A stretch of DNA of 64,000 bases, taken from the NCBI GenBank assembly GCA_052327205.1, contig CM126206.1:44020001-44084000 (forward strand), read 5' to 3'. Below are positions 9,321-59,058 of this stretch, one piece after another. Source of the DNA: Somniosus microcephalus (Eukaryota). Both the position numbers and the translations under genes were made by a program. The notes below the pieces were generated by a model. It had not been told where the DNA came from and made no database searches. It was given only the letters and a program-made list of their open reading frames with translations. Positions within the stretch are counted from its first letter, which is position 1. Every line of letters begins with the position of its first letter.

Positions 9321-9418
9321 CTATAAAAATAAAAGACCACAAATGTAACTTTCATTTTTGTTATAAACACCAACTATGAACATTCTTCCTAAAAAATAAT
9401 CCTGTAGCAGTGCATAAA

Positions 9419-21502: not shown

Positions 21503-22004
21503 CTGGAAAAAAAATTAAAATTCCATAAAGACTTTAATATTCAAGGAAAACAAATCAGCATCTGCTGCATGTTTCTCTCATCTTCTACACACATCATAAA
21601 ATGGTCAATCTTTAAGTCATGCTTTGTTTGATGGTGCAAGTCAACCAAGAGACTCTCAGTTCAGCAGGTTTAAATCACAAACATATTTCTGGTCATTTTA
21701 TATGGGTATGATTATAGATTGCAATGTGCATGGAGCTCACTCATCAGGTGATAAACTGCAGACTAGCAACAAGGTAAAGAAGGGCTCGGGGGAGAGAAAG
21801 AGTGGAGAAGAGAAAAAGTCAAAAGACAAGATGGCACTACAGGCTGATCTGTAGAAAATTCAGGTTTCCACTTGTTTAGCAATAATTGCATTTTATTTAG
21901 CTAAACATCTTTTAGAAGATGTCTGACTGAAAACAGATCACGTCTGGAATGCGAAAGGAATCGATTCTCGGTATTATTTCCTTATTTCGGTTATTCAGAC
22001 TCAC

Positions 22005-22256
22005 CTTCCTCGGCCCATGCTGGGTGATGAATCAGCATTGATTTGCTCTGACCTTCCAATCCCAAAATCTCTCTTATTATAAGCTGCATTGCTATGGATC
22101 CGTGCCCTGTTAGGTCCAGCCGGTCGCATCTGAGGACTTCGAACACCATTCAACAGACGATCCGTAGAAAAATTAAATATCGTTGGGCTCTCCAAAAGTC
22201 CCGGTCCACGATCTGTGTTCGGTAACGTGGGGCGTAGATGAGATTTACTGTGGTTC
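22005..22256 (-). CDS. LARP4B: LARP4B exon (NHSKSHLRPTLPNTDRGPGLLESPTIFNFSTDRLLNGVRSPQ...SSPSMGRGR)
   Basis: gattag|G acceptor, AG|GTGAGT donor; 252 nt, phase 2 to 2. Confidence 0.96.
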
Positions 22257-25200
22257 CTAATCAGAAATGTAAATTAATTATGCTGATCTAGAGCAAGACT
22301 AATCATTGTAATACGAACAAATTAAGAAAACATAACCACTAACAGTAAAGTTTAAAAATTTGTAATTCAACATTGAAATCCCTAGGGTATAGTATTTTTC
22401 CACCAAAATAAGCAAGCTTTTGGAAATACTACAAAAAACTGGAGTGATAGGCAGTGCAAGATTGGAGGACCAAGAGGATATGCTACAGAAGGATAAAACT
22501 CCATGCTTGATGAATGCTGCAGCTACACTAGCTTGCTCCTGCATAACTTCTGGTCCTAGTCCCGAGACTAACCACCCCAGAGAGAAGTCTGGCTATCAAG
22601 GCCATGGCTAGCATCGTGATGATCCAGACCAACTCTCTCTTGCATGATTTACTGCTAGCAGCAGGTTGAAACAACCCCCTGCTACAACAGAGCCCACCTC
22701 CCCAAACATCTCAATTAAGCATCTGTCAGATTACAGCTAGTTGAGATTGATGTACAAGTCTCCACCCAAAGCTGAATAATTGCCCAGCAATTGGACCCCT
22801 TTCCTGCAGAGCTATTTTATATTTATAATAACTAAAAGGATAAGAAACACCTCTTGGGAAAAGCGGAGCGCACCATCTGCTATTGGCACAAGGACAGCAT
22901 TTAATGTAATAGCCTAACCAAACAAGATAGGGGAGATAGCGTGGCACTGTCTGGCTAGCCTGAGTTCCCAGATCAGTACGCATAATTATGCACACTGACT
23001 TGTGTGTATATTCCTGTAAATACTGCAAAACTGCAAGATTATCCCTCCGTTTGAACACCCCCTACTGAAGATACTACAGTCAAGCAGATTGCAATCTTTT
23101 CTTGTCTAGTTTTTAAGCACTGCAGACTTAGCATGCTCAATCAGGTGCACTTTGTTTAAAAAAGACAGCAATATATGCATTAAATACGTCAGTTCGGGGC
23201 ATCCCAGGAGGTCAAATGGCAGGTCCGCCCAGTTGCAGATCTGATGGCCACGAGTTGCAAAGCTGCCCGTCATTCCAACTTGCTTCCCTGAGGTAGCTCA
23301 GTTCCAGCCCATGCGATAAATGCTGAAAGGAGATGCATTCATTCCCTTTCAGAAAGATATCTGCAGACTAAATCAGTTCCTGCTCCAGTTATACCTCCTA
23401 ACTACAGTACCTCACAGCGGACTGTCCTGCCATCCAGGGTACAGGATAAGTAGCAGTAACAGGAGTTTTGTGAGGGGGGAGCGGGGGGCAGTAGGGAAAG
23501 AACTATTAGATCATCTGCTCAAATGTTTTTGACTTGTTGAAAGGTTGAAATGCTTTGAGCAGATATGGTTTCTGAAGATTATAAATGTCTTCCTCCCTCT
23601 TCTCACCCAACTTTCTTTCCTCATTCCTGCAGCATTTTGCTAATGTTTGTTCTGTGAGTGACTAGTTCCATGTGGAAGCACCTGGCCTCCTTTCACCACA
23701 GCTACTTACTAGAACAAAGGCTCAGATGAAGAATCCTAGTAACAAAATCGGCAGCCTACGATTCTGTGGCACTGAATATTGGAAGCTATATGTACAATGC
23801 CACCATACTGACCACAGCAGTGTTAAGATATGGTCCAAGATATTGCTTGCAGGAAATGGTGACCACATTACAGCAAGATAAAAATGTCCTCAAGAGCTAG
23901 ATCTTAAAAAAACAAACGAATGCAAGATAAGCATTTTTACATATGTTAATTACTACTTGTGGGGGAAAAAAACAGCTCAGATCTGAAACAAGTCAACTGT
24001 TGAAATGTTTTGAAAACAAGTGTTCCTGCTGCTTGATCACGACATAAAAAAGGAACACAGCAACCTCCTGCAATTACTCTGAAACACACTGCATATTATA
24101 TCCATTAATGCTGCAACAAATGTGCATTATCTTTCTCCTCTGTTGGCATGTATCCCATGGCCATATCCTTTCCTATAGGTACAGGCAGTTCTGTCATTTT
24201 TGAAGTCAAAACAATGATACAATTACACATTAAATAAAATGTTAGGCTTATTTAGCATATTGGTACCAATATACTACAGAAGATGATCAACTTAAACCCA
24301 AATACCTCCATGGTTTGAGATACGATTTGTTATTGTTTCAAGTTGCTCCTACTACCATTAGTGACGTCTACAACCACCAAAACTACATATCATACAACTT
24401 GTTCTCCAGGTACAACCCAAATATGGAAACAAAATGCAATGTACTTGGGAGTTTTCCCCCACAGATTAAGTAGTCATCGTTTGAACATTTTACACATATT
24501 ACTTCACTGAATATCCAAATGAAAACACTATGGTCACTATTGTTTTGACTTGCATACCCCACACGAAAGGGCCACATAGATCTTTAATCTGGAAAGTTTT
24601 TTTTTTAACAAAGTTCCACACAAAAGATTCCTAATTAAACTAAGAACTTCAGTAATTCAGAATAGAACATGTTAAATTGAATAAACCAAGATAGGAAACA
24701 TTATTCAGAAGGTAAAACATGGGGAGGTTTTGAATAAAGCTCCAAATGGCGTCAGCATTTGGACCCTTTTTCTAATCTAGATAAATGACTTGGATACCAA
24801 ATACTCTGGCAACACAAACGGGGAGAGCAGTAGACATGACACAGCTAGAAAGCTTTGCAGAATGGTTTACACTGGTTAGCCATTTGGGAAAATCAAACTT
24901 AACACTTCAGAAATTTGAAACAGTGTACTCTGGTCAGAAAACCTTGCATCATAGTTAAGGAATGCTTGGAACGGAATTAGAATCGAGACCTAAAGAATCT
25001 GGGAGTAATAGTGAACTTATTTTCAAACACCTAGACATTGTGGCAAGCTTTTTCACAAAGTTAATAAAAGCAGCAGCAACCCCATCTGCAGAAATATTAA
25101 TGCTTCAGAGTGCACTGGTCGCATCACACTTGGAGCAGTGTGTTCAGTTCTGATCACACCATAAAAAATGTAAAAAGTATTGGAAAAAAGCTCCCAAATA

Positions 25201-25531
25201 TAAAAGGAGCTGAGGTTTAAGGAAAGATGTGTTTTTAACAGTACGTATCTAAATTAATACATATTGCTATACTGATCTTAAGCCACTCTTACCCAAGTTG
25301 TCTTCCTCCTCTAAACTCTCTCCCCTATGGAAGGAAGCAGGAAACATACTCCAAGCCTGTAGCAATGACTTGTAATAAAAGGTATGCAAATGCAATTGGA
25401 TTTTCCTCCATTTCTATGGAACAGCCAATTTCCTTTTTGCACTTCTCTCCAGAAACTAGGAAGGCTGTGCTTGCTCCCAACCTAAATGCTCTCTACTTCA
25501 AAAAAAAAATTAACATTCAAAAAGATCTTAC

Positions 25532-25641
25532 CTGTTTCTAGGGTTATATTGTCTGAGTGAGGTCAAAGGGGCTGTAGCAGATTTGAAGTTTGGAGCTGCA
25601 GTAAATCCATTTATGAAGCCAGCATTAGGGAATGGAGATAC
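25532..25641 (-). CDS. LARP4B: LARP4B exon (VSPFPNAGFINGFTAAPNFKSATAPLTSLRQYNPRNR)
   Basis: ttgtag|GTA acceptor, AG|GTAAGA donor; 110 nt, phase 0 to 2. Confidence 0.95.
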
Positions 25642-28600
25642 CTACAAAAGAAATAGAATATGAGAGTAATATTTCAATTCTCTCTATATAAAAATGACAG
25701 CCCAAGTGTAGAAAAACATCAATAGTGCAATCTTTATTCCACATTTGTGAATTTCAGAAGGAATGTTTCAGTTACATAAATTACTGTGCTCATTTTTCCA
25801 TTTTGACAAAGCACTATCAAGAGTGGAACCGCAATCAAGTTACTTAATTTAGGCCAAGTTAAGTTTGAAGTCACGCCATTCATGAAATAAAGATTTCACT
25901 TTATTCTTGATGTTCAATAAAAGGCAGGAATTATGAATTTACAGTAGGTAAAATGTTGGTGCTTTCTACCTTCATCTGAAACACAGAAGCCATAAAGACA
26001 AATTGATGTGGCTTTGAAAAACATTGGATTTGTGCAACATGTCCTCTGAAAATCTTGAAGGACAAATAAGTTTTCAAGACATGAGCAATCCAGTGAAAAG
26101 AACTTAGTCTGATTTTCAGAAAGTTTTGAGCATCTGAGACTTTAAAAAGATAAAGGCCCATTGAATAAATGACATTAGCTTGCTAGCTTAATTTTAAAAA
26201 GCAGATGGTGATAAATGTGAAGTTATGTTGAGACAGTAATTAGCAGTATTCCACAGGAACCTGCTCCACATGCACTGGTTACACTATTACTTTTATTACA
26301 AAATTTTCTGAAAACGAAGCTACATGAGCAGATAACTAACGTCACAGGGCATTCAAAAAGACCTGGAAAAGCCATGGAATGAAACGGATTTTAATGTCAG
26401 ATAGTAGAGGAAACCAGTGTATACAATGGGTCCATTAACAAAGCAGTAACTTTGGGTTAATTTTGGGTATCTAACCCTCAAACAGATATGCGCTCTGGGG
26501 CATAGGTCAAAAAGCAACAAGGATAAATCCAGGGGTACAAGTTAGGATGGAGGATTCACAGACCACATGTTAACTAAGAGGGTATGATCCAAGTCTTGAA
26601 AATGAGATGTACATTTCTTGGAAAAATAAGTTACTGCACTCCGACTAACTGCAGAACTAGAAGACAAGTAACAAGTTCACAAGCCTCAAGACCAGAAATT
26701 AGAACCCCTCCTCCAGAACAGATGATGTCAGTGAAATAGGGTCCAAGCAAAATCTGTTCACGCCTCAATGACCTAACACCTTAAAAGAAGTCCCGCATAA
26801 AGTTGAAGGTTTTACGGCAAAGGAATTAAAACATTTTTTTAAATCTTCCGAAGACCACAATGCTCCTGTTGGGCTATGGCAATGTCATATGGTGCAGTGG
26901 CCGATTAAAGTAGGTTTTAGTATTAGGTCTGTATTCTGGAATTTCACTCAATTATATTGGGGATCAGATAAAGCATGTTTTCTTGGATGCAACTGCCAAT
27001 AAAACTAGATTTGAAGCCAGTGTTGAACAGATGCTGGAGATGTTCCAGAATATGCAGATCATGTGAACAGGATTGACCTAGTAGACCACTGAACAAGCGG
27101 TTTCCATTGTTATAAACTCAATTTAAATAGATGCCCTGCGGGAACTGATCAAAGTATATACAGACAGGAATGGGAAACCCTGACCCACCAGTTGTTGTCT
27201 TCAATAATTAGGTAGTCGGATGCGGTATTTTACTTCACAAGTTAGAATAGATGCCTCGTGAATGCAACAGGATCCTCCATTTACTCATTGTTGTGATGTT
27301 CAAGAAACATGGTTTGATGGGCTAACACAGGATTACCAGTATAACATTTGCTCCATCCCCTTGCATCTTTTGAACTACCCCTGGTATGAGGGAGAAATGC
27401 TAAGAAACCTTTGTGCCAAAGAAAAGGAGATACCACATGACCACCGACAGGAGCTACCATTCAGAAGGGTTAACAGATCTATCTTCAGATAAACACAACT
27501 CCAAGAAATGGGTTGAACTAACTCTGGACCTTCCACTCAGGAGCATGAAACGTGAGAATTTAATAACAGGACATTATTTTGTCTGCTGTGACTAGTTAAG
27601 CGAAGTAAGTGCGACTCAGACACTAGTATACTAGTTGGATTGCACCTTGGCAAACAGAGTGGGAATCAAACCGCTTTCCCTCTTAGTGGTCAATAAAACT
27701 TACGGTTATCTACACTGATGCAGAGCCAAAAAAGTGAAAACTGTTATTCTGGGAATACAGAGCGCACAAGCAGCGCAATTCAGAATGCTTAAGAATTTCC
27801 ACATTGATGCAGGAAAAATAAGTTAGATCGAACATTAAGTTTAGCTCAGACAGTTATTCTGGAGACTTAAGAATATCTTGAAATCAATGAAGTAGAGAAT
27901 ACACGCTGGGGTTGACCGAAATCAAAAGACAAAACAAAAGGATAAATGGCTCCCTGAGCCGACTCCCTACAACACAGCACAACTACTAGATCATGGACTC
28001 TATGCAACTTAAGTCTCCCAAAAAATATAACCAGAGGTAAAACACATAAAATTCTAAATTTCCTTGATCCTTTAAATCAAGAGCCTCTAATTAATAGTTA
28101 AGTTAGCTGCCTTCGTGTTATACAAAGAAAGGCAAGTTGCATTGCTTGAAGATGGAGCTTTAATTTTTGCACCTATATCCAAGAAACCTCTTGCTATCTG
28201 AACATTTCGATCTGAAGTAGTTTTCATCAACAGTGCAACATCCATCTTGGTTTAGTATTCAGCAATAGCCTACCAGCAAACCAACTGCAGTTCTACCTTG
28301 AAATAAAGCAGATTGAAATACAGTATTAAATTACTTTTTAGCTGGATATTCATGTGCTCTCATCCAGCAACTTGCCAGATGCCACATGGCCACCAACACA
28401 AGTCAAAACTCCCAGATTTCTGCTGGAGTCAATTAACTGTGGTCGTGCATTGACTAGGACTTTGACATCAAAAACTAAATAAGGTTCTCAAGTATATATA
28501 GATAAGAGAAGCATAGCCATGTTTCTTAGGAAGACGGGAGTGTGGCCCATCAAGTCTCCTTTCAAGTCACACAACAGAAACTAACGCATTTTGACTGGGC

Positions 28601-30021
28601 TTTTATATCTTAGGATCCAGCATGATGTGCATCTGCCAACTTCTGCAGCTGTAGATATCAACAACAAAGCAAATTCAGTATCTGCCCCTCATTCTAGCAG
28701 GCCTGAAGATAAAAAAGTTGCAGATGGACTATTTCAGGCAAACATTTCTCAAATTAGTAAGTGAAGTCAACCTGGAGGCACTCCTCGTTTTAAATCATTC
28801 TCATCTAGTGCAGAGACTCTATTTTAGATCGCCTACGCAGGAAGCTGATGAATTGACACCAATGTTTCTACAAGAAATTTGGAAATTAGGGCCTTTTCCA
28901 CCCAGATAGCAAATATGACAAATGGCCAAAAACTGCTAAAACCCCAGCTACTTTTTATCTCAGAACCCACTACCTCACCCCGACCTCCCTCTCTACCACC
29001 GCGCCAACACCGCCCGCCCCCCACCCCCATACCAAACCCCAATGTTTTCACACCTGATGCAAGAACATGAAACAAACTTTACAGAAGGGAAGAAATTAAA
29101 GCTGGCAGCAGCTTCCAAGAGATTTTTTTTTTTTTTTTTTAATGCCTACAACTTAGTTCATTTTTGGCTCAAAATCTGACTGTCGTGACTAGCAAGATGA
29201 AAGTGGAAAATTTGCACTTTAAGTTGTGAGAAACCCAAAAATCCCAAGCTTAGCCCAATATAGTTGTGTACTAATATACTGCCCTTGAGTGCAGAGATGC
29301 AAGTTTTATTCACTTCCCTACATAATGGGTTCCTAAGCGCGTCAGGCGACTAAAAGAGAGATTCGGTATGTGCTTCTGCCCCTCCCCCAGGATGAGTCGC
29401 CCATGTACTTGCTAGTGTCTGGTTCGGAGCTGAATTGCCAGACTTTTGGATGGAGGCCGTCTGCGCACGCAGAGGAAATGCTGCATAAAACGGGCAAGTT
29501 AAACAATTGAGGACATTAAAAAAAAAATCTTTGTTGACAGAGCAGCACTGGCAGAGACCTGGGAGCAAGTTGCCTGCCTGCCCGCAGCCTTCAGCTAATG
29601 AATAATAGGGCACAAAGGGAAGGAAACAACTTTCTCAAAATATAAATGCTGAAGTCATAAAAGCGATACGATAGCCTCGATGGGTGACTGATCAGTTCTG
29701 GACGAAGTCAATCAAAACACGCAATTACCCAGATGCTCCACCGTCCTATGGAAATTTTAAAGGATGCAAGTGTCCCAGTAGTTCTCTCTGTGTCTCAATA
29801 ATGAGTATGAAGCACGGAGATACATTTATAAAAGCAGATATTAGAGGTCATAGTTTGCAAGTGATTCTGTTATCGTTTAAAATCTTTTAGGTGCCCAATT
29901 ATAAAAAGGCACAATAAATTCAAGAGAATTCTAAAAGGTCAGTAATTATTACACAATTTGGTCAACTTTAAATGAAGAAATGATCAACAGTTTGAAACAA
30001 TTCCAAGTGCATCACACTTAC

Positions 30022-30231
30022 CAATGTAGGATCCAGGTAGCTATGGGTTGTAGACCAAGACTGAGGAGTAAGAAGGCTATAAAGTGGAAACTGCTGTTGG
30101 GGGCTGTATATCGGAGGCACATAAAATGATGTGTACCTCTGTTGTTGAGTGTATAGGTTCATATCAAGAGGTCTATAACCATTCTTTGGTAGAAAAGTAT
30201 TGATAGCCATTGGCTTTGCTTTTATCCTTGC
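30022..30231 (-). CDS. LARP4B: LARP4B exon (ARIKAKPMAINTFLPKNGYRPLDMNLY...HSYLDPTL)
   Basis: ttgcag|GCA acceptor, TTG|GTAAGT donor; 210 nt. Confidence 0.97.
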
Positions 30232-30331
30232 CTGCAAAAAAGAAAGTTCCAGGTTCAAGTTAATACTTGACACTGTACCGAACAGAAGAATCAAGGAACT
30301 AAATCAGTGTTAAATAGTATCCAACTTTTAC

Positions 30332-30385
30332 CTTTATAGGCTTTCCCTGGAAGGTTTTTACTTCTTCTCGAAGATATCTGTAAGC
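30332..30385 (-). CDS. LARP4B: LARP4B RRM exon (AYRYLREEVKTFQGKPIK)
   Basis: gccag|GCT acceptor, AAG|GTAAAA donor; 54 nt. Confidence 0.96.
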
Positions 30386-30933
30386 CTGGCCAATGTAAAT
30401 GACAAGTTAGAACACATGGTCACTCATGTTACAACACTACACATGTGGTGCATGATCAATAAACTACAGAAATGCACATTAGTTTTCAGTTAAAATGCCA
30501 GCTCTGGTGTGGTCGCAGGAATGCTACTCCGCTTGAATTATTAAGTTTGAAGTCAGCAGATTGATGATTAGAATTGCAAAGTTAGCATTACAGTCACAAA
30601 CAATTCAAGATAAACCACTCGTAATGGAAGCAGTTTTTTGTGCACTGGAAAACACTATCTGCTGAGAACACTGCTATCAAGTGTTCAATTCCTGTTCAGC
30701 AGATAAGGGTTGTATGCAGAACCACTGCCCTTCAAATACATTCAACCCAGATTTGAGAGTGTACATCATGTAAAAAATGTCCTTTAAAAGTTTTGCCATA
30801 TTTAAAAGTCTCGTTACTTAATTTTTGTTCTTTTTTTCTTTAAGCAGAACTTTTAACTAAAGGAGAAAACTGGCTCGGAGGTAAACAAAATACATTCACA
30901 ATAGAAACAAGCTCAGCGTACTCGACTGAAAAC

Positions 30934-30953
30934 AGTCAGTCAGTCAGTCAGTC
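30934..30953. repeat. (CAGT)n tetranucleotide microsatellite
   Basis: About five CAGT units seen directly. Confidence 0.85.
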
Positions 30954-31589
30954 ATTCAACTAGGCTACTCCAATGATCATGTCTTCTCGGGCATCAACTC
31001 AGTTTCTACATGCCGATTTAATAAACCCATAACAGGTCTCCACCGATCCCACATTATACATACTTATTTGAATATGAATATTCAAAATTGAAACTTCAGA
31101 AAATTAAACCAAGAAGTTATTCCTGGAAAACCCCTTATAAATGGTGGAGATGGTATGGGAAGAGCAACTATTATCACATTTGCAGGTAGTTTATTAAAGT
31201 TGAACAGTTCCAAGAATTGTTAATACACATCTTAATTTGCAAAAGGCTTATAATTATTGCTACAGCCTTTAGGACAAAGTGGGACATTTAATTCTTTGGT
31301 AATTTTCTTTTTTGTACTTAACGTTAAGGGCATTAATCCCATGAAATTGAAGACTTTCCATTTCAAGCACCCAGTGTCAACATCAAGCACAGTAGTTGGA
31401 GGCAGAGCAAAGTGCCCTTCATTCTGTCTCCGTGCCTCAGCACCAAGTGCGCCCTCTACTGCACCAGTGTATTATTACCCCCTTCCAATTTTTTGTATCA
31501 GCCATTCTGGGGCTTCTCTAAATTAGCAGTAGCTTTGTGCTGCAAACTCAGCCAACTGAATAAAAACCCCGCAAATGTATTTTTTTAAA

Positions 31590-32600
31590 ATTTGTTTATG
31601 GGATGTGGGCGTCGCTGGCACGGTCAGCATTTATTGCCCATCCCTAATTGCCCTCGAGAAGGTGGTGGTGAGCCGCCTTCTTGAACTGCTGCAGTCCATG
31701 TGGTGATGGTACTCCCAGTGCTGTTAGGTAGGGCGTTCCAGGATTTTGACCCAGCAATGAAGGATCGGCGATATACTTCTAAGTCAAAATGGTGTGTGAC
31801 TTGGAGGTGTTGGTGTTCCTGAGCGCCTGCTGTCCTTGTCCTTCTAGGTGGAAGAGGTTGCGGGTTTGGGAGGTGCTGCCGAAGAAGCCTAGGTGAGTTG
31901 CTGCAGTGCATCTTCTAGCTGGTACACACTGCAGTCACGGTACGCCGGTGGTGGAGGGAGTGAATGTTTAAGGTGGTGGATGGGGTGCCAATCAAGCGGC
32001 TGCTTTGTCCTGGATGGTGTCAAGCTTCGAGTGTTGCTGGAGCTGCACTCATCCAGGCAAGTGGAGAGTATTCCATCACACTCCTGACTTGTGCCTTGTA
32101 GATGGTGGAATGGCTTTGGGGAGTCAGGAGGCGAGACACTCGCCACAGAATACCCAGCGCCTCTGACCTGCTCTTGTTGCCACAGTATTTATGTGGCTGG
32201 TCCAGTTAAGTTTCTGGCCAATGGTGACCCCCAGGATGTTGATGGTGGGGGATTCGGTGATGGTAATGCCGTTGAATGTCAAGGGGCGGTGGTTAGAATC
32301 TCGCTTGTTGGAGATAGCCATTGCCTGGCACTTGTGTGGCACGAATGTTACCTGCCACTTATCAGCCCAAGCCTGAACGTCGTCTAGGTCTTACTGCATG
32401 CGGGCATGGACTGCTTCATTATCTGAGGCATTGTGAATGACACTGAACACTGTAGTTATCAGCAAACATCTACATTTCTGACCTTATGCTGGAGGGAAGG
32501 TCATTGATGAAGCAACTGAAGATGGTTGGGCCTAGGACACTGCCCTGAGGAACTCCTGCAGCGATGTCCTGGGGCTGTGATGATTGACCTTCAACCACCA
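31590..32600 (-). mobile_element. CR1/L2-group (Crack/Daphne-like) LINE 3' fragment
   Basis: KCQAMAISNKRDSNHRPLTFNGITITESPTINILGVTIGQKLNWTSHINTVATRAGQR is a post-RT region; homologous copy at 63258-63710. Confidence 0.82.
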
Positions 32601-32734
32601 CAGTGTATTCTACATACAATCCTTACAAACACAGGTGACTTTCATGTCATCAATCTGGACCCAAGTCCCAGAAGCAAAAGGCTGTGTGACGCAGTGCACC
32701 ACCCAGTTTAAAAGAATCTTATAAGACAAACTAA

Positions 32735-33194
32735 CAAAGAAAAGACTTGCATTTATATAGCACCTTTCACAACCATCAGATGTCCCAAAGCGCTTAACAG
32801 CCAATGAAGTGCTTTTGAAGTGTAGTCACTGTAGGAAATGCAGCAGCCAATTTGCACACAGCAAGCTCTCACAAACAGCAATGTGATAATGACCAGATAA
32901 TCTTTTTCAGTGATGTTGATTGAGGGATAAATATTGGCTAGGACACCAGGGATAACTCCCCTGCTCCTCTTTGAAGTAGTGCCATAGGATCTTTTTCGAT
33001 CACCTGAGGGGGTGGACAGGGTCTCAGTTTAACATCTCATCTGAAAGACAGCATCTCCGACAATGCAGCACTCCCTCAGTACTGCTCTGGAGTGTCAGCC
33101 TAGATTTATGTGCTCAAGTCTCTGGAGTGGGACTTGAACCCACACCCTTCTGACAGAGGCGAAGAGTGCTACCCACTGAGCCACAGCTGACACT
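32735..33194 (-). mobile_element. Full-length SacSINE1-like DeuSINE
   Basis: tRNA head with A/B boxes (GTGGCTCAGTGG...GGTTCAAGTCCC), Deu domain and AAGTCTTT tail. Confidence 0.9.
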
Positions 33195-33329
33195 CAACAG
33201 AACTTAGTGCTGTACTGAAAGCTTGTGCAGAAGTACAACTGATTGAAGCACAAAGTATTTAAATTGCTAAAGATTTCATGTATACATTGTCTCAATTTCC
33301 AAAATCTTGGTAAGAATAATAGGCTTTAC

Positions 33330-33440
33330 CTGTTGTGCATCAGCCTCTGATTCAAAGGTGATAAACCAGTTGTCATTGTAGGCAAACTCACAACTCATGA
33401 ACTTCGGGAAATTTTCTCCTCTGAAGAGTGCTTCTACCTC
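33330..33440 (-). CDS. LARP4B: LARP4B RRM exon ([37 protein letters not shown])
   Basis: cccag|GAG acceptor, CAG|GTAAAG donor; 111 nt, phase 0 to 0. Confidence 0.97.
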
Positions 33441-33504
33441 CTGGGAAGAAAATAAGCTTGATATTATGCCAAATACATATTCCATGCAGGCAGGTTCTAC
33501 CTAA

Positions 33505-33832
33505 TACAGGAAACTTTCGATTTACCGGCACCTAAATAACCGGAAATCTCAGTTAACCGGCAAAATTCAGGAGTAGATTTTACTTCATATTGTATTTGCC
33601 TTCCTCCGTCTGTTGCTGTGCAATGGTGTGGCTGCAGCTGTTGCTAAGCTACAGAGACGCTTGAAACTTGTGGCCATTGTTCTACACTTGTTGCTAAGCA
33701 ACAGGGTTTGTTGCTTTATACGGAACCGTCAGCTCTCCCTATCTTTTACTATAGCATTCGGTTATCCGGAATTTTTGATGAACCGGCACCACGTCGGTCC
33801 CGTCCGTGCCGGATAAAAAAAAGTTTCCTGTA
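33505..33832. mobile_element. Tc1/mariner-type MITE (orientation B), 65 nt from an exon acceptor
   Basis: TACAGGAAACTTTC...AAAGTTTCCTGTA, 328 bp. Confidence 0.9.
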
Positions 33833-34377
33833 ATGTCATCCAAGTAGAAGACAGTTCCTGTGCAATTGCTCTTAAAATATACAACTCCCTTTAATCCCAA
33901 CCACTCAAGAAGCACATACATAGCCTTCACTAAGCACTACCCCACACAATCGCTGCCCTGGCACAGATTTCCTTCTATAATTTATGCCCTGGAGCACTAA
34001 CTACCTCAACAGTCAAGCATTTTACATGGTTACATGAGTGGAGTATTCCACAACATGAGAGTCGACAGGTTGTCACAGCAGTAGTTATAACAAGCAGCAA
34101 AACCACTGGTATTTTTTTTGTACGATTATCCTTTTGGGTCAACTAGTTCCAAAACAATTTTGGACCGAAAGTCCAAATTCTTTGAGGCTGGTCTAAGGGA
34201 CTGTTCTGTGGTTTAAGATCATAGTGACTTACCCAATACCTGGCAAGAAAGGGAAATGTACCTTTCAAATTAAGAAAAAAAACTGTAACCTAAAAAGTGA
34301 GCATCCTCCATCTCCCACACAAGAATTTTACTCTACAGATTAGCTACAAGAGTTTTGTTCAAATTAGACCAACATGT

Positions 34378-35190
34378 TATAAGAACATAAGAAATAGGAG
34401 CAGGAGTAGGCCATTTGAGCCTGCTCTGCCATTCAATAAGATCATGGCTGATTATCTACCTCAACTCCACTTTTCTGCACTATCCCCATATCCCTTGATT
34501 CCCTTAATATCCAAAAATTTATCTATCTCTGTCTTGAATATACTCAACGACTGATCCGCCACAGCCCTCTGGGGTAGAAAATTCCAAAGATTCACCACCC
34601 TGAGTGAAGAAATTCCTCCTCATCTCAGTCCTAAATAGTCAACCCCTTATTCTGAGACTGCTCCCTGGTTCTAGACCCCCCCCAAGCCAGGGGAAACATC
34701 CCCCCTGCATAGAGGAGAGGGTGCAGAGGAGATTTACCAGAACAGTCCCAGGGATGAGAGACTTCAGTTATGTGGAGAAGCTGGGGTTGTACTCCTTAGA
34801 GCAGAGAAGGGCAAGAGGAGTATTTGACAGAGGTGTTCAAAATCAAAAGGGGTTTTGAGAAGAGTAAATAAGGCGAAACTGTTTCCAGTGGCATGAGGGT
34901 CGGTAACCAGAGGACAGATTTAAGATAACTGGCGACAGAAACTGGCGGAGGAGCTGAAAGCAAGTTTCATTTTTGGACTCATGGGGAATCAAGGGATCGG
35001 GCAGGAAAGTGGAGTTGAGGTGGAAGATGAGCAGTGATCTTATTGAATGGCGGAGCAGGCCTGAGGGGCTATATGGTCTACTACTGCTCCTAATTCTTAT
35101 GTTATGAGAGGAATTGTTCTTAATGCAGCAAGTTGTGATCTGGAACACGCTGCCTGAAAGGGCGGTGGAAGCAGATTCAATAGTAACTTC
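34378..35190. mobile_element. Cluster of opposite-orientation CR1 3' ends
   Basis: Minus 3' end 34378-34700 (AAGAACATAAGAAATAGGAGCAGG...) joined to plus fragments (ERVQRRFTRTVPGMRDFSYVEKLGLYSLEQRR) and a plus 3' UTR at 34975-35105. Confidence 0.85.
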
Positions 35191-35699
35191 TAAAAGTCTA
35201 CTGGGGATACCAACTGCATTACTTGAATATCTGGAACAAGCTAATCGATCACTATTTATCCCATAACAAGTGGAATTGCCTCTTTCCACTTTGACTAAAA
35301 TGTTAAGGAATATTCACCAGCCTGAAGGCACCATTTATTCTCTCCATCCCCAACAGGACAAATTTGCCCAGATGCAATTTATTTCTTTAAAAATCCGCAT
35401 GTAGATTCGTACTCCAGTAATTGCGTACATTTAGCAGTGATCTGGATTTCTCTCACGGATCTTGTAGTCAGCACTATGGAGTTGGAGCTTGATCTAGTGC
35501 ATCAGCTCAGTTTCCTGTGTATTGGCTATGGTACTAATGTTCCTGAAGATCTCGCTTACAAGAACTATGCTGAACCTGCTTGCCAGTCATTATACCCCAT
35601 CTTGCACTAACTTCTGGATCCCATTTGATAGTTTTTAAATTCAACTGAAAAATGTCATTATTTTAAATTAGAGCGTGTCTGTTTTTGCTCAATTCTTAC

Positions 35700-35803
35700 C
35701 TCAATGGGTGTCGACTCTGGTACTTCTCGTAGAATTACAATGCAGCGGTTTTGATTTGGCCTGACTTTCTCTCCTTTCTCATCCACTTGGACCAAAGGCA
35801 ATG
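35700..35803 (-). CDS. LARP4B: LARP4B LaM-RRM junction exon ([35 protein letters not shown])
   Basis: ttttag|CA acceptor, GAG|GTAAGA donor; 104 nt; 88-nt intron to the preceding exon. Confidence 0.97.
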
Positions 35804-35891
35804 CTAAAATGAATTACAGGATATTTTCATATTTTCAGCAACAATTCTCTTCAAAATACTGCTTTTTACATTTTATGCAACACATACTTAC

Positions 35892-36028
35892 ATCTCAAAA
35901 CTTCAATAATCAGGTCCACATCTGTGCTCAGTTTCTTCACATGGTCAAGGTTTGCTACAGTCAGTATTGGCACATACTGGTCACTATCCATTTGGGAGAC
36001 CAGGTACATATCAGTGGCCAGATTTTCT
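35892..36028 (-). CDS. LARP4B: LARP4B La motif exon (ENLATDMYLVSQMDSDQYVPILTVANLDHVKKLSTDVDLIIEVLR)
   Basis: ttgcag|A acceptor, T|GTAAGT donor; 137 nt. Near-identical to human LaM. Confidence 0.97.
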
Positions 36029-36609
36029 CTGCAAAAAAAAAAATTACACTCAATGTGAACAACCAGAATTTTAATTAGATTTGCACCCATTTCCAAGCTC
36101 AATGTTAATGAAGTATTCACATTTTAAGGAATTGTTCAAGTTTTGAGTGCCTAAATGCCTACTTAATATGTTCCAATAAGCCAACAGATTGACTTTTCAA
36201 ATTAGAGAAACACATAGTTCCACTGACTGGATGATAGTTAAAGTTGTAACTTTAACTATAGTATTCAGCCATACAGACCAGAAGTTTGCAGGATCAATTC
36301 CTGGTTAGCTCAACTGAACCAAGTTAGAAATTGGGGCACAGTTAGCCTCAGTGTCCTTAGGAGGATAAAGAACATAAGCAAACATTTCTAATCATTGTCC
36401 AGTGACCACTGATGGAACATGTGGAATTACGGCAAGAGGTGGGCTGGGTTTGGCTTTGCACCATAGAATGTACTGATGCCCATGGTCGGCATTATGGGAC
36501 CTGAACACTAAGCAGCTGGATCTTCAGTACAGTACATGGTGCTTCCTGTGTTTTGGCTGTGGTGCTAATGTTTGCTAGCATGCTGCATTTCTGAAGATCT
36601 TGGAATCTT

Positions 36610-37000
36610 AGTCAATCATAATGGCACAGGAGGCCATTTGGCCCATCAAGCCCATACCAGCTCTCTGTAGAGCAATCCAGTCAGTCCCATTCCCCTGCTC
36701 TATCCCCGTAGCCCTGCAAGTTTATTTCCCTCAAGTGCCTATCCAGTCTCCCTTTGAAAACATTGAGCGTCTCCGCTTCCATCACTTCCGTCGGCAGCGA
36801 GTTCCAGGTCCTCACCACTCGCTGCGCAAAAAAGTTTTTCCTCACATCCCCCCCTGTATCTCTTGCCCAAAACCTTAAATCTGTGTCCCCTAGTCTTTGT
36901 ACCATCAACTAGTGGGAACAGCCTTTCCCCGTCTAGCCTATCCAAACCCACCATAATCTTGTACACCTCTATCAAATCAAACCTCAACCGCCTTTGCTCT
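36610..37000 (-). mobile_element. CR1 LINE 3' end
   Basis: DLIEVYKIMVGLDRLDGERLFPL...TRGHRFKV; [15 protein letters not shown]. Confidence 0.88.
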
Positions 37001-37576
37001 AATGAATCTTACTCAGAAGAACTTTGTCCCCACCCCCTCCCCCACCTCTCCAACTTGCACTAACTTCTGGATCTCATTTCTTTGATAGCTTTTCAAGATC
37101 TATAAGCTTACAGCACCTTCTAGTGAGGAGAGAAAAGTTAAAGGGGCAGTGTTTTTAAAGAGATGACTCATTTGGTTCAGGTATACCAATTCCTCTATTT
37201 GTCCACAATCAATGTTGGATGCCTAAGGTATGCAGACACCCAACACCAAGTTGATTTCTTGCAGTTTAGAATTTCATTAATTTGTTTGTTTATTTTGTTT
37301 AGAATTTTGTCGGCAGAATTTGTGCAGTACTTTTGAGATACTGAAAGCATGTTCTGTTTTTGGAAGCCGGGAGGAGGGAGAAGGGATATTCATTTTCAAT
37401 TTGGTAAGAAAACCATTTTGGTCAAAAAACTTTAAAGAGTGTATATTATCTACAGCATTAATTATCAAGTCCAAATGGTTAAACTACATTGTTAAGCACT
37501 TAAATCTGCAATAGAGATTAAATAAAATTAATCTCAACATGTATAAACTAAGAAAAACCTACAACTAAGGACTCAC

Positions 37577-37667
37577 CGAGACAAACAGAACTCCAGTGTC
37601 TTTTTCAGCAACTCTCGAAGGTCTTCTTGACCAACTGTCTGCTGTTCCAACAGAGACTGATCTCCTC
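37577..37667 (-). CDS. LARP4B: LARP4B exon, start of La motif (…GQEDLRELLKKTLEFCLSR)
   Basis: tttgtag|GA acceptor, TCG|GTGAGT donor; 91 nt, phase 1 to 2. LKKTLEFCLSR is a LARP4B La-motif signature. Confidence 0.96.
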
Positions 37668-38914
37668 CTACAAACCAAAAGAAAAACAAGAGTTTCTCCA
37701 GGAAAAATGCACTTGTACATTACCGATCTAATACAGTGCAACTTAATCTCTTTCACCCACATTGCACAGCAGTGTCTTTCATGGTTAGGCTGTCATTGGT
37801 GGCAGACCGGTAAATTACATGAGTGTAGCAGCCGATTTCACAAAGTTAATTTATAAATTTAAAATCCTACAAGAAACCTAATACAGCAACTTGTGTATGC
37901 AAGATCTGTCAGTTACAAGATGGGTTAGGAGGGGTTTTTACCTCACATCGAATGCAAAAGCCTGACAAACGTAGATGCCTTCAAAAGAAAGTGTATAAAA
38001 AGGGAACAAAGGCTGCAGTGAAGAGAACATTTAAATATATGGTGAAATTATTAAATAGAATGGCTAGTACTAACTCACTAGAACAGTGCATGATATCCCA
38101 GACTACTGTCTGCACATTGATGTTGAATTCTGTCAATTTAGGGAAAACAAAATGAACATAAAAACAGATTGCTGTGGATTAACCTTCCACATATGTTCCT
38201 ATGTATCATATAACATTATACATCAAGATGAAAACCTCCACAGACTTGCAGTTCACAGCAGGACACATTTTAGATAGTGATCTAGGACTGAAATATTCAA
38301 CCAAAACGCTCGAAGCCCTAAAATTACTAGGAAATATTTAAGCTATATTAGAATAGTGCCCATTGACATTAGAATCAATTCTCAGGTTAATATAGGCTCA
38401 CACTGGGCCCTGAAGTGAAGTACCAAAGAGTTCAAGGAAAAGTTGTTGTGCAAATAATTCCAAAAAATGTACAACAGCTGAAATGCACCAACACATCCAG
38501 GCACAGACACAATGACATCATACAATTGCCAGGACCAAAAAAGTTCTCTTTTCAAAAGGTCAATTTAGACTGTAACCTGACAAGAATAAGAAAGAAATTT
38601 AAGCATAACTATATTGTGCAAATAATTGACATATGGAATAAGTTACCAAGGAGGCCGTTGAAGCAAACGTGTTCCATGCATTCCTTATACTGTTCATTTT
38701 GGTTCAAAGTGAACATAAACCGAGACGTGCTAGCAAAGCATAGAAATCCACTGCCCATTAAAATTGCGAAAATCACAATTGAAGACAGATGGTAGAGTTA
38801 TTCCAACTGGTCATGTGAATCATGAGAAACTCAAACAATGTATGGCGCAGGTTTTTGTGAAATGAACTCAAGAGAATCAATGTGATAATTAAACGGCAGT
38901 GTTTTTTCTTTTAC

Positions 38915-39079
38915 CTGTCTGTCTGGTTCCGTGCATTGTCTCATACTCTGAATAGAAAGAATCAGAGCACTGGAGTGTTACAGCATCCAGATCTGGCTGC
39001 TCAGGGGAAGGAGCTGTCAGAGAGGACTCCTGTGATGGACTTTGAAATGACTTGCCAGCATCACCATTGGTCTCAAACC
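38915..39079 (-). CDS. LARP4B: LARP4B exon (GFETNGDAGKSFQSPSQESS...SEYETMHGTRQT)
   Basis: tgacag|GG acceptor, ACAG|GTAAAA donor; 165 nt, phase 1 to 1. NGD and SEY anchors resemble human LARP4B. Confidence 0.88.
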
Positions 39080-41474: not shown

Positions 41475-41610
41475 CTTCTGGGCAAGTATCAGGAGCCCCC
41501 AATTGTTCTTCCCAAGGTTCACAGGCATTGCTCGCAGCAGCATCCAGATTTAGCACGTGATTTGCCCATACTTTGGCATTAGGATTCAGCTCTGAAACCT
41601 TGGCCGACTC
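41475..41610 (-). CDS. LARP4B: LARP4B exon carrying the PAM2w motif (ESAKVSELNPNAKVWANHVLNLDAA...CPE)
   Basis: ELNPNAKVW is the LARP4-family PAM2w motif. Acceptor ctttggtag|GAG, donor GAAG|GTATGG; 136 nt, phase 0 to 1. Confidence 0.95.
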
Positions 41611-48494: not shown

Positions 48495-49010
48495 GACTGG
48501 TACAGGCTTAGGTTGGAGTCAAACCTGGTTAAAGGGAATGATGTACAGTTGCTCAAAGTCCCTCAGTGGCTCTGCCACACTTTCATAAATAAATGCTGTT
48601 CACTCCTAAAAAATATCAAAGTTGAAGAATTTTAATGAGAATGTTGGATTGTTGTTTCATTGAAAGGAAATGACAATGAAGTTTAAGACAGTGTTTAAGA
48701 TGGAAGACGAAATACCATCCTCATTGCTTCTGAACATAAACTGAATGAGCTATGTTTAATTTGTAGGGTATGAGCGCAGTGTGGTTATGGTATGGACTAC
48801 CAACCCAGAGGTCACAAGTTCAAATCCCACTTTTGAATTAAATAAATCCAGGGGCAGGCACCAGAAAAATAGCCATGAAAGCTGCCTCATCTGGCCCATA
48901 CGTGACTCCAAAAAAAATTTAAATGGCAAATTTGCTGACATGTACAAAAGTTACACTTTTAACAGAGCCAAAAGGTGGGATTAAATCGGTGTCATTTGAA
49001 AGATACTCAC

Positions 49011-52000
49011 AGTCTGGTCACATCTGTTGAGCCAACTCCAAGAATCAATGGTTTCGGACACAGAAAGCCGGTATGGATACATCCCAGTAAGGCTTTTGGG
49101 GGCAACATTCTTTGATGCAACCGACTGGACTATATCATTTTGTTGTGGTCCGATCTCTTTGATAATTCCAGAGAAGTTGGTGTTCCATAAGTAACCCATA
49201 CGGCTGTCTACATTTATCTTCAGCTGTTCAGAAAATATATTCTCAGCTACATCTTCAAACATTGCGTCAATTTCTGGATTGATAGTCCATGGTGGCCAGA
49301 CGTCATGTTCTAAATTGTGATCTACTTTAGGTTCATCTTCAGACTCTCTCAAAATGACTGCCATCACATCCACACATCTCTCATTGCTTCTGCACAGCAC
49401 ATCAGATGAGCTTTTCTCTTTTTCATCACCACTGCTGAAGATTCCAGCTATGACATGAGGTATTTCATATGAAGGAGTTGATGCATATCGATCTATCTGA
49501 CTAGGATCTACAAGACTGTGAACAGTCATTTCACATGATTCTGTTGATGTGTATAATTTAACAGCCTCCGCATCTGTTGAAGCACTAGTAAAAGGAACAC
49601 TCTTTTCTAGTGCTGGGGCATTAGCTTGTGAACACTTCCCCTCCTTTGTTTCAATTTCAAAGGTGGGTGGACTCTTCACAGACTTATCCAATAACGGTGT
49701 GGTTTTACAGCTCGTGCCGAACATGACTTGCGGAACTTCATTTTGCACCCAGCACAAAACGGGATTGTAGTACTCATTTGTAATCCAGTCAGCATCAAAT
49801 GTTTGTTTCAAGTCTTCATCAGTCTTTTCATTACAACATTCTGAGAGATGCCCATTTACAAAGCTAGTTCTGTTCTCGATCTGTGGATGGATATTTTGCA
49901 GAGTCTCTGAACCTCCAAGTGCTGCATTTGGAGCTGATGAAATTTGCCTATGTGCAGAAAGATTATTTTGAATCTGAAGGATCTGTTCAGTTATTCCATT
50001 CAATAAACTTTCTTCATCTTTCAGACTGTTGGTATATTGTTTTAGGCAGATGTCTGCATTGTTTTCTACAGTATCAGAGAAATTATGGGTGGCAAAATCC
50101 ATTTCACTGCTTACTTCAGTATTGACTGCTAAAAAAGCAGCAGAATCTTGGTTTTGTTCACTATACCTTGTCTCACCTTTTTCCTGTTGGTTTTTCATAT
50201 TTGTTTCTGTAGCTGGTCCTTTCTGAACAGAATCCCAGATATCATCATTAGTAGGCAAAATACTTCTGATTTCATCCAACTCTGTTAAAGCAACACTGGC
50301 ACTGCAGCCAATGTTAAATGGCTCAGACAGACATGTATCATCATACATTTCAACAACTGCGTCGTGTTCAGCTGAAAGGTGAAGTCTTGAATTTTCCAAT
50401 ATAGTTTCTTCAGAGACATAGGGCACCCTCAATTTGAGGTCAGCTTGCAAAATGTCATCAATGCACACTGATGAAAGTTTACCACTTTGGTCACCTCTGC
50501 TTCTTTGATTAAGTATCTGCTCCTCAATGGTAGAATTACTGATATAAGCTACATCATCTAACTTGGCACAAGAACTGGATTTCAAACTATTCCCTTCAGC
50601 TTTCATATGCTCAAGTGGTTTTTCAACAGAAGGTACAGATAAGGACTTTACATCCAAGTATTTATCTTCCAGAGGTTCCACAAACACATTTACATGACTT
50701 AACTTAGTAGCTTGATCTTGTTGCAGTTTGTCAGTCTCACTCTTCTGATTGGTAAACTCTGTTTCCAGCAAATTAGATGGCACACTAACTAGATGGCTAA
50801 GAATTAGCTCACCTTCAAGACAACAGTCTGACATTGATTCAGAGTTAGAATTAGGTATTTTTTCTACTGAAGAATTAACAGGCCATAAATAATTTAACTT
50901 TGGCAGCACGGCTTGCCTGATTACAGAGGAGTCGGAGATAATATTTTGGCCATTTCTTACCCCATCAAGCTGCTGCACAGCTGTGTTTGGATACATCATA
51001 CTTTTGGATTCCAACATATTGAGCTTGCATTGTTGATATTCATTAATTCCTGTACCTTCAAAATGAGTGCAATGTTTTGCGGGGGACTCTGTCTCTATCT
51101 GCTTTGCTGCACACAGATGGTAGCATTTGGCATGGTTGTAAATATTTGCATATTTTGAAGCACAAGTGTCTGAACTAATGAAGTCATTTACCTCAGTCAA
51201 GTTCTCAGAAAGTGAAGATTTTACAAGGCTGTGTTTCTTTCCACATTTAGGATGAGTATCGAGACTTTCTGCCTCATCTTTGGTCATTTCTGCAGATAAA
51301 AGTGCTGCATTTGATTCTGGCAGCAGGAATATAGCAGCTTGTGCCTCATCAGGGTATACTTCAGTGGAAAAACCATGCTGCTTCACAATGTCTACTTCTA
51401 CGGTCATCGCTGGTGCGACTTGAACTACTTCCTGCTGCTCAGACACAGCTGCTCTACTTAAAGGACAGTGTCTTGAAAACTCCCCAGCAGTATCAACAGA
51501 CCATGTTAGGCTTTGCTTTCTATCAGCTGCAACAGCTGAACAGTATAGATCTGAAGCAATTTGATGAGGGAAAACAGGTGCCCCGTCATCATTGTCTACA
51601 TCCTCCAGATCTATTGTACAGATACTATAAAAATCATTGGTTCGAGATTGAATATAGATTTCAGCAGACACGTTACTGGTATCCAAGAAATGTTCTTGTA
51701 TATTATGCTGTGTTGTAATACATTGAACTCCATCAGTCTTGCTATTTTTAGCATAAACCTCTGCCACGAGTGAGTGACACTTAAGTTCTTGCTGTTGAGA
51801 GTGGGAATTCTCAAAAGTCATCTGGCAACTTGTCAAATTTGTGCCATTTAAGGAAGCCTCTTCCTTGGGGTGCGAGAGCACAATCTTGTCCTCTGGATGA
51901 TTACAGTCTAATAGAAACGGCGCACCTTCAGTAACATTTTCAGTTCTCTGCCTCCGAACAGAGTTTTCAGCCATTTTAACAGGACTCCCTGACTTTTGGC

Positions 52001-52466
52001 GTTTTCTTTCCAGATCTTCCTTTCCTTTAACATCCAAGATTTTTTTCCTTGATAGACCAATCGTCTCCCACAGACTCCTTGTTTGTGCATTTGACAATGA
52101 AGGATCATCTGTCAGGAAGTCGTCACTAGCTTTCCTTCTAAGATTTGCAGCTTGCTGCAGGCACATTTGACTATGGTAGAAGGGTTTCTTTGTTAGCAAG
52201 AACCAGATTACGTGCCTGCTGTTCTTCAACCATCCTTGGTTAGTATCCACACTTGCATTCACAATTTGTGCACGCTTCAGCGTGCCATATTCGTGAGCCT
52301 GTTCATCCAAGTCCCCATTTTCAGTCACTTCTTTAAGTATTGACCCTGGGTTCTGGATCCAGTTTTCAGTATCTGTTTCACTTCTTACATTCCTTAACAA
52401 ACTTGTTTTTTCGGTGACATTGTTGGCCAGCAAAGGACTTCTCTCTTTACTGAAGCAACAACCCAT
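49011..52466 (-). CDS. LARP4B: Giant alternative N-terminal coding exon of LARP4B (1152 aa, acylation signal MGCCFSK, acidic/Ser-rich, probably disordered)
   Basis: 3486-nt stop-free ORF (48981-52466). Kozak aagcATGG with in-frame TAG TAA 15-10 nt upstream. Consensus donor ACT|GTGAGT at 49011/49010 is phase 0, and the next LARP4B exon (41610) starts in phase 0. Splicing is inferred, not observed. Confidence 0.78.
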
Positions 52467-53419
52467 GCTTCGCAGTTACTACAACAAACCGGCACGCTGC
52501 TAAAGCTCAGTGCTCTGAAACAAACTTCCAACTGGAGCAGAGGCTAGCCAACACCCACGTACCAAAAATAGCACCTTTGACGCTGTTAAAAATTCATGTG
52601 CTACTGCCAGTCAAATCTTTACAGCACAGCCTGGTTAACTTATTCCTAAATTAATAACACCGTATCAAATTTCCACTTTATGCCATCAGGTTTTGCAATG
52701 GAGGGGTTTTCTGATTTACAATAAACCTGTATTCCTCATTAAGCCTGCATTCAGCAACTAATTACAATCTTAAAGCAGCATAATACTGGGATTCCAGATT
52801 TTAATTTTGGCTGTTCAGAGTTGCTGGGTAGTAACCGGTTAGAATTTCTGCCATTAGTGGATAAGAACATAAGAAATGGGAGCAGGAGTCAGCCATTTGG
52901 CCCTTCAAGCCTTCAAGATCATGGCTGATCTACTGCAACTCCACGTTCCGTACTATCCCCATATCCCTTGGCTCCCTTAGTATACAAAAATCTATGGATC
53001 TGTCTTGAATATACTCAACAACATTTCTGGAACTTAATTATGAAGATCGGCCATTGCACCTTAAAACCTCTCCACTCAAATTTCAGCATCACAGCATGGT
53101 ATTCTAGTGTAATTCAAAATATTTATTGTTCCTAAAAGATAGTACAGACAACAAATATTTGAACTTTACAACACAAATGTTGTATATTTTTCTACTTCAG
53201 TGTCAGCTGCAGCTCAGTGGGTAGCACTCTCGCCCCAGTCAGAAGGTTTTGGGGTCAAGTCCCATTCCAGAGACTTGAGAACAAAAATCTAGGCTGACAC
53301 TCCAGTGCGGTACTGAGGGAGTGCTGCACTGTGGGAGGTGTCAGCTTTCGGATGAGATGTTAAACCGAGGCCCCATCTGCTCTCAGGTGGACGTAAAAGA
53401 TCCCATGGCCACTATTAAA

Positions 53420-58977: not shown

Positions 58978-59058
58978 CAGAGGGGAACTGTCCACAACTT
59001 CTTGCACTTGCTGCACCTGCGGTTCAGCCACAACTTTAGTGTCCTGGTCAGAAGTCAT
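58978..59058 (-). CDS. LARP4B: LARP4B canonical first coding exon (MTSDQDTKVVAEPQVQQVQEVVDSSPL, 27 aa); exon acceptor at 59111
   Basis: Matches the human LARP4B N-terminus MTSDQDAKVVAEPQ as I recall it. Acceptor ttcacag|AT at 59112/59111; donor CTG|GTAAGT at 58978/58977, phase 0, 81 coding nt. Confidence 0.93.

Follow-up and report, generated by a model that had tools for sequence, protein, structure and literature searches.

It is still an open question how messenger ribonucleoproteins (mRNPs) are retained on endosomes and lysosomes; the tethers known so far use lipid-binding domains or Rab5. LARP4B is usually studied, in cancer among other fields, as a soluble factor of about 740 amino acids. 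It binds PABPC1 through its PAM2w motif and associates with RACK1 (PMC7356810, partial text). In the Ustilago Upa1/Rrm4 system, Upa1 carries both a PAM2 motif that binds poly(A)-binding protein and a membrane-binding domain (PMC9249222, partial text), while ANXA11 uses a disordered region (PMC12852828, partial text). This last source, a 2025 review of vesicle-coupled mRNA transport, covers Upa1/Rrm4, ANXA11 and FERRY and nowhere uses the words 'myristoyl', 'palmitoyl' or 'lipid anchor'. Here we describe a giant alternative first coding exon in a LARP4B intron of Somniosus microcephalus, which would give LARP4B a predicted lipid anchor, a sorting signal and a very long disordered arm. It lies on the minus strand of a 64,000-nucleotide stretch (the window; assembly GCA_052327205.1, contig CM126206.1, positions 44,020,001 to 44,084,000), and the elements that define it are as follows.

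52467..52760, minus strand: 5' leader contiguous with the open reading frame (ORF), at least 294 nt, with short upstream ORFs (unspliced contig X1-8, related organism)
49011..52466, minus strand: coding part of the giant alternative first coding exon, 1152 codons (ORF, homologous spliced models and RNA)
49005..49010, minus strand: phase-0 donor GTGAGT (break of contig X1-3; V-S in 41 of 47 read-through homologues)
48981..49010, minus strand: nine-codon read-through tail and stop, intronic, not conserved
58978..59058, minus strand: canonical first coding exon MTSDQ..., 27 codons (83% to coelacanth LARP4B)
41475..41610, minus strand: first shared exon, with the PAM2w motif LNPNAKVW (exact spliced piece in contig X2-9)

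The minus-strand frame from 52466 to 48981, between the MTSDQ exon and the PAM2w exon, encodes 1161 amino acids and a stop. It is the longest of the 18 ORFs of at least 120 amino acids listed for the window, six times the length of the runner-up (196 amino acids). At the window's stop frequency, 1161 codons would stay open by chance with a probability of 1e-27, and at the base composition of the ORF with one of 1e-35; the remaining two minus-strand frames across it contain 70 and 130 stops. The ATG has a strong context (GTTG TAG TAA CTG CGA AGC ATG G, with A at -3 and G at +4), and the in-frame TAG TAA directly 5' of it shows that the ORF has its own start codon and no upstream open frame. The donor ACT/GTGAGT at 49011 is in phase 0, as are the acceptor ttttttgctttggtag/GAG of the PAM2w exon at 41610 and the donor of the MTSDQ exon. 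With coelacanth LARP4B as a guide to the exons of the window, the 14 shared exons splice open at 608-613 amino acids (613 with acceptors 37667 and 16899), and the last LARP4B exon, of about 97 amino acids, falls 0.5-0.8 kb outside the window on its left side (L002 9522-9235). The spliced long product would thus have about 1862 amino acids in all. A first-pass annotation of the window had proposed an uninterrupted 1161-codon ORF on the LARP4B strand, a phase-0 junction with the PAM2w exon, a true alternative N-terminus rather than an insert, and an isoform of 1.8-1.9 thousand residues; on recomputation each of these proposals stood, as did the absence of a transposable-element insertion, with the exon overlapping none of the window's 48 self-repeat intervals.

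The giant exon is single-copy, with one match in its own 6.4-Gb genome. The pattern MGCCFSKE also has one match in the genome, and a control pattern likewise one. Pfam gave two matches to the ORF, both below the cut-off, and an ESM Atlas search with it gave no usable match. A transposon or viral origin, which the first-pass annotation had named as one of three findings that would count against it, was rejected on the single copy, the lack of a Pfam match above cut-off and the identity of all three phmmer matches, which are vertebrate proteins, one of them named LARP4B. The exon is almost certainly real, and it is the first coding exon whether it has its own promoter or is reached by splicing from a far non-coding exon.

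We aligned four sequencing runs to 41300-57200, two of raw RNA (X7 and X8) and two of contigs (X1 and X2). The contig sets are from a related organism and their status as RNA is a guess, though in X2 the PAM2w exon occurs as a spliced piece with exact boundaries. In X8, depth was 0.5-7.8 across all seven giant-exon bins and 0-0.4 in three low-repeat intron bins. First mates fell on the plus strand (0-0.04 on the minus strand), which corresponds to minus-strand RNA, and the PAM2w-exon bin had the same direction. Nine contig pieces among those listed for X1 and X2 lie within the giant exon, at 2-5% divergence. One of these, X1-3, aligns to 49010-49420 and leaves 29 nt unaligned; its alignment stops precisely at the donor, since the single additional aligned base is the G common to the GT and to the next exon's GAG. 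Contig X1-8 is unspliced over 52386-52760, so the leader extends for at least 294 nt. The giant exon is transcribed on the LARP4B strand.

Six upstream ATGs with ORFs of 2-17 codons lie at 52597-52854, and those up to 52750 fall in the transcribed leader and could limit translation. There is no CpG island near the giant exon. A CpG-rich stretch about 42 kb 5' of it (C5:44114500-44116500) is a candidate for the main LARP4B promoter.

We then asked where else the exon occurs in protein databases. A phmmer search of 1.84 billion representatives with the window protein returned three matches: coelacanth LARP4B isoform X2 (1880 amino acids) and stand-alone ORFs of a crocodile and an anole. A profile search, in which the top 8000 candidates were scored, added five (seal, otter, kangaroo rat and two teleosts), and the kangaroo-rat arm as query gave 65 matches in placentals, monotremes and birds. 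Human A0A8I5KVU2 (1735 amino acids) and mouse XP_011242555.1 (1723 amino acids) were found by cluster look-up. Spliced full-length models exist for coelacanth (XP_064410714.1), teleosts, seals, otters, kangaroo rat, human and mouse. Altogether 138 distinct MGCCF proteins were collected, mostly automated gene models, of which 86 run on into PAM2w, 84 into the La motif, and 47 are stand-alone. In 41 of the 47, V-S (a GTRAGT donor in frame) follows a WxW-type motif by 6-7 residues, as in the window, and in 82 of the 86 spliced models the WxW lies 16-18 residues before LNP. Judged from these models, the exon, its frame and its donor are common to teleosts, coelacanth, sauropsids and mammals; in many species the frame is intact rather than disrupted or absent. 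Searches returned no protein from amphibians, gar, lamprey or other jawless fish, or further cartilaginous fish, which is not evidence of absence, and residues 975-1152 as query returned 0 of 268 candidates at E<=1, a result uninformative on absence. A few models (P0046, P0081, P0084, P0095, P0100 and P0011) have arms of only about 340-870 residues in which the N-terminus and, for the most part, the end of the exon are retained, which suggests that splicing within the giant exon could adjust the length of the spacer.

The first-pass annotation had left open whether automated annotation already predicts the isoform: RefSeq and TrEMBL do so, human and mouse included. It had also known of no functional description. 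We found no description of the long isoform among the listings and opening abstract lines of the LARP4B literature searched, which was mostly open-access, and the word 'isoform' is absent from two LARP4/4B papers. The available text of an evolutionary survey of the LARPs describes only the short LARP4B N-terminus (PMC7928011). The long isoform is an anonymous 'isoform X1' in the databases, and is uncharacterised as far as we have searched.

The part of the exon that varies least is its N-terminus, where three elements stand close together.

52446..52466, minus strand: MGCCFSK, predicted N-myristoyl Gly2 and S-palmitoyl Cys3 and Cys4 (M1-F5 invariant in 40 of 40 alignment rows)
52428..52445, minus strand: second acidic dileucine ERSPLL, residues 8-13 (two motifs in 1 of 62 N-termini, this species only)
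52395..52412, minus strand: conserved acidic dileucine EKTSLL, residues 19-24 ([DE]XXXL[LI] consensus; E19 and L23 invariant)

All 72 homologues and the query start with MGCC (73 of 73, unselected by start). A second set, of 62 distinct N-termini that are mostly mammalian, was drawn from those stored proteins that fit MG[CS]C[FY] (138 of 207); in this set, chosen by that pattern, MGCCF is found in 62 of 62, S6 in 57 and K/R7 in 61. The consensus for dual acylation of the SH4-like type is Met-Gly with Cys at 3 or 4, Ser at 6 and Lys or Arg at 7, and the window N-terminus fits it. E-x-x-x-L-[LI] starts at residue 13-19 in every one of the 62, against a background of 35 in 1975 windows (1.8%). 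The middle residues of the dileucine vary while E and L are fixed, and the non-mammalian lineages found all carry the motif; in the window protein the second acidic dileucine, ERSPLL, lies ahead of the conserved EKTSLL. AP-2 is among the adaptor protein (AP) complexes that use [DE]XXXL[LI] motifs. Such signals sort to endosomes and lysosomes and bind several AP complexes (PMC2173715, partial text).

Two precedents bear on what this N-terminus might do. The mT/mG tag MGCCFSKT, with which the first seven residues of the window protein are identical, is myristoylated on Gly and palmitoylated on both Cys and takes tdTomato to the cell membrane (10.1101/2020.09.18.303743, partial text). Residues 1-39 of LAMTOR1 hold an acidic dileucine together with palmitoyl and myristoyl sites, and fusions to them go to the lysosome surface (PMC7039192, partial text). 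A search of residues 1-50 against PDB sequences gave four chance matches (E 0.6-1). On its sequence, long LARP4B is very probably membrane-anchored, and the conserved dileucine beside the predicted lipid anchor, a feature absent from the first-pass annotation, points to endosomal or lysosomal sorting and not to general membrane binding. A transmembrane segment as the anchor was rejected, since hydropathy reaches at most about 1 and no hydrophobic helix is present.

Most models (122 of 138) begin at MGCC. The other 16, seal, bat and monkey models (e.g. P0010, P0071, P0075 and P0129), begin at an in-frame ATG 6-21 codons upstream of it, and use of such an upstream ATG would hide Gly2.

Beyond the N-terminus the arm keeps its length and composition far better than its sequence. 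Identity to the window protein is 15-21%, about 10% in mid-arm, and below 25% between lineages. Across species the arm is mostly 1,000-1,180 residues, with 14-17% Asp and Glu and 11-13% Ser, and its net charge is -65 to -97 in seven species. AlphaFold2 (AF2) on the 40-row alignment gave a mean predicted local distance difference test score (pLDDT) of 36 with no helices or strands, a low value that could partly reflect poor alignment. Composition and AF2 agree with the acidic, Ser-rich, disordered arm that the first-pass annotation had described. Only 10 of 1161 positions are invariant in the 40 rows (M1, G2, C3, C4, F5, E19, L23, I282, C283 and W1143), and conserved islands stand out from the rest.

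51618..51632, minus strand: FYSIC motif followed by acidic residues, residues 279-283 (14 of 14 non-therian and 24 of 26 therian rows; I282 and C283 invariant)
49458..49508, minus strand: DPxQ[IV]DxYAxTPSYEIP motif, residues 987-1003 (TPSYEI in 14 of 14 non-therian and 0 of 26 therian rows)
49032..49079, minus strand: YPY...WxW motif at the arm end, just before PAM2w (W1143 invariant)

FYSIC is present in 38 of the 40 rows and WxW in 39. DPxQxDxYAxTPSYEI is kept in fish, coelacanth, reptiles, birds and monotremes, and the absence of TPSYEI from therian mammals suggests a lost partner or phospho-site. The islands (FYSIC, DP..TPSYEI, GYLW and PY..WxW) are probably linear motifs for partner proteins; LIR, FFAT, SH2-ligand and GW/WG motifs are candidate readings of FYSIC, TPSYEI and WxW.

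The gene that would receive this arm is LARP4B. The MTSDQ exon has the conserved P2+ start of the B type, and the exons from 36028-35700 onward, with the La motif and then the RRM, match coelacanth LARP4B at 78-94%. Pfam La was found in the coelacanth long isoform. The exons after PAM2w are these.

9209..39079, minus strand: thirteen further shared LARP4B exons (La motif, RRM and C-terminal regions)
39079-38915, 37667-37577, 36028-35892, 35803-35700 and 33440-33330, minus strand: shared exons 2-6
30385-30332, 30231-30022, 25641-25532 and 22256-22005, minus strand: shared exons 7-10
21502-21457, 16899-16723, 14203-14070 and 9320-9209, minus strand: shared exons 11-14

A separate, more distant, LARP4A-like paralogue lies on C33 (C33:39701229-39713347). 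Over the RRM exon of the window the teleost, coelacanth and human long models agree with the window at 28-31 of 36 residues, and with this paralogue at 19-21 of 36. By every sequence test the giant-exon product is a LARP4B isoform. The 5' exons of the paralogue were not found within 100 kb upstream of it, nor was any arm-like ORF or MGCC start there, and it sits among simple repeats and retroelement-like ORFs. In the window itself, two fragments of about 830 bp that resemble long interspersed elements (46912-47749 and 57312-58144) are 90% identical; with other window repeats they attract very high RNA read depth.

We propose that an old, conditionally used alternative first coding exon swaps the 27-residue start for an arm of about 1,000-1,180 residues and retains PAM2w, the La module and the C-terminus. 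Gly2 would be myristoylated and Cys3 and Cys4 palmitoylated, placing the protein on the cytosolic face of membranes, and an AP clathrin adaptor would bind E-x-x-x-L-L and direct it, like the LAMTOR1 N-terminus, to late endosomes, lysosomes or related organelles. The negative, disordered arm may act as a spacer and keep the module that binds PABPC1, RACK1 and mRNA at a distance of tens of nanometres from the membrane, by a rough polymer estimate, so that translating or transported mRNPs could be tethered to those organelles in some tissues. It is from the acyl tag, the AP-sorting signal and the PABPC1 and RACK1 binding of LARP4B together that we infer an acylated, sorted mRNP tether. That a lipid-anchored, adaptor-sorted LARP4B uses a long spacer to tether PABPC1-bound mRNPs to late endosomes or lysosomes seems to us evenly balanced between true and false. 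The fuller proposal, of an overlooked vertebrate (including human) LARP4B isoform that as a single acylated, adaptor-sorted chain anchors ribosome-engaged, PABPC1-bound mRNAs there, is more tentative and leans somewhat towards doubt.

The same lipid-anchored tether might instead work at the plasma membrane, a polarised domain or the trans-Golgi network and recycling compartments, with the dileucine serving endocytic cycling or polarised sorting. The seven-residue tag of identical sequence localises to the plasma membrane, and dileucine motifs are recognised by more than a single AP complex (PMC2173715, partial text). However, LAMTOR1, which as a natural protein with the three signals all within its first 40 residues is the nearest precedent, goes to lysosomes, and the dileucine is as invariant as the lipid sites, so we consider these destinations unlikely, if still worth keeping in mind. 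A further reading shares the sorting signals: the long isoform might sequester PABPC1 and its target mRNAs on membranes, or send them to multivesicular bodies or lysosomes for decay or export, in opposition to the soluble isoform. Our data do not separate tethering for translation from disposal. Every RNA- and PABP-binding exon is kept, though, and a long spacer of conserved length would better suit large mRNPs held at a distance than packing into small vesicles, which makes disposal a slender prospect.

Read-through of the donor could also yield a stand-alone membrane protein of about 1,050-1,160 residues as the main product of the arm, with the LARP4B fusion minor. The 47 stand-alone proteins among the 138, including TrEMBL 'uncharacterized' entries from crocodile, anole and two monkeys, take this form. 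In 41 of the 47, nevertheless, the tail starts at the conserved donor, and the tails show no conservation, the pattern that gene prediction on unspliced DNA would produce. Against it too are the 86 models spliced to PAM2w, the break of contig X1-3 at the donor, and the absence of AATAAA within 1 kb 3' of the stop (the first ATTAAA is 220 nt away). A stand-alone protein is therefore very improbable. We give hardly any credence to a real isoform whose N-terminus is unlipidated or unsorted and whose arm is a soluble condensate or scaffold domain: the disorder of the arm and the 16 models with an upstream in-frame ATG would fit it, but in-frame stops precede the window ATG, MGCC is the start in 122 of 138 models, and G2, C3 and C4 do not vary. 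The view that the ORF is functionless and arose by chance or from a transposon, for which one might cite the lack of a Pfam family or Atlas match and the low sequence conservation, is practically dismissed by a P of about 1e-27 or less, a single transcribed copy and a frame open at about 1,000-1,180 residues in most of the 62 lineage variants, and this cross-species conservation of the ORF refutes it.

When weighing the proposed late endosomal or lysosomal tether, it is important to remember several points that count against it. Six of the seven giant-exon bins have no reads in run X7, which carries the same species label as X8; with one sample nearly empty and the other covered, use of the exon looks tissue- or state-dependent, from two samples only. 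The joint from 49011 to 41610 is not among the 15 joints listed, all repeat-derived, with 505 further ones beyond these. We found no protein-level evidence for the long isoform. As several AP complexes bind [DE]XXXL[LI], the sequence does not fix the destination, and the identical MGCCFSK tag alone leads to the plasma membrane, not lysosomes. Residues 1-50 had no LAMTOR1 match among PDB sequences at E<=10, where solved constructs may lack the N-terminus. Finally, the 62 N-termini are mostly mammalian and do not count as independent, having been found by searches in which the N-terminus itself contributed to the similarity, and the caveat on the low pLDDT applies to the spacer.

If the long isoform is made, past knock-downs of LARP4B may have depleted two proteins with different locations, of which rescue with cDNA brought back only one, and variant analysis on the reference isoform would treat about 3 kb of human coding sequence as intron. 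If the tether is true, mRNA would have a new means of attachment to vesicles, turned on by the choice of first exon. Long LARP4B would then be a candidate, in neurons or other polarised cells, for a part in local translation and in mRNA transport coupled to lysosomes. The fixed N-terminus, with lipid anchor and dileucine predicted side by side, gives a sharp hypothesis on mRNP tethering that can be tested cheaply in human or mouse cells.

Set beside known systems, the long isoform is a novel form of an already known gene and not a system of its own. The RefSeq and TrEMBL models (A0A8I5KVU2, XP_011242555.1 and XP_064410713.1/714.1) have the same exon, start, donor position and PAM2w join, as unreviewed or predicted entries. 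Canonical LARP4B has PAM2w, the La motif, the RRM and all downstream exons in common with the long isoform, which loses the short conserved P2+ start (PMC7928011, partial text) and gains an arm of about 1,150 residues with a predicted membrane anchor. Like LAMTOR1/p18, long LARP4B has myristoyl, palmitoyl and acidic dileucine signals, predicted in its case, within the first 40 residues. Unlike LAMTOR1, its cargo would be an mRNA-binding module and not Ragulator, and no homology was detected among PDB sequences; it may work like LAMTOR1 without being one. The mT/mG tag is an artificial, engineered MARCKS sequence that lacks a dileucine and localises to the plasma membrane. Upa1/Rrm4, ANXA11 and FERRY link mRNPs to endosomes or lysosomes, as we propose for long LARP4B, which is homologous to none of Upa1, ANXA11 or FERRY in the searches run. 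These systems attach through FYVE-PI3P, annexin repeats or RAB5, whereas long LARP4B would attach through a predicted acyl anchor, with anchor and RNA-binding module in one chain chosen by the first exon.

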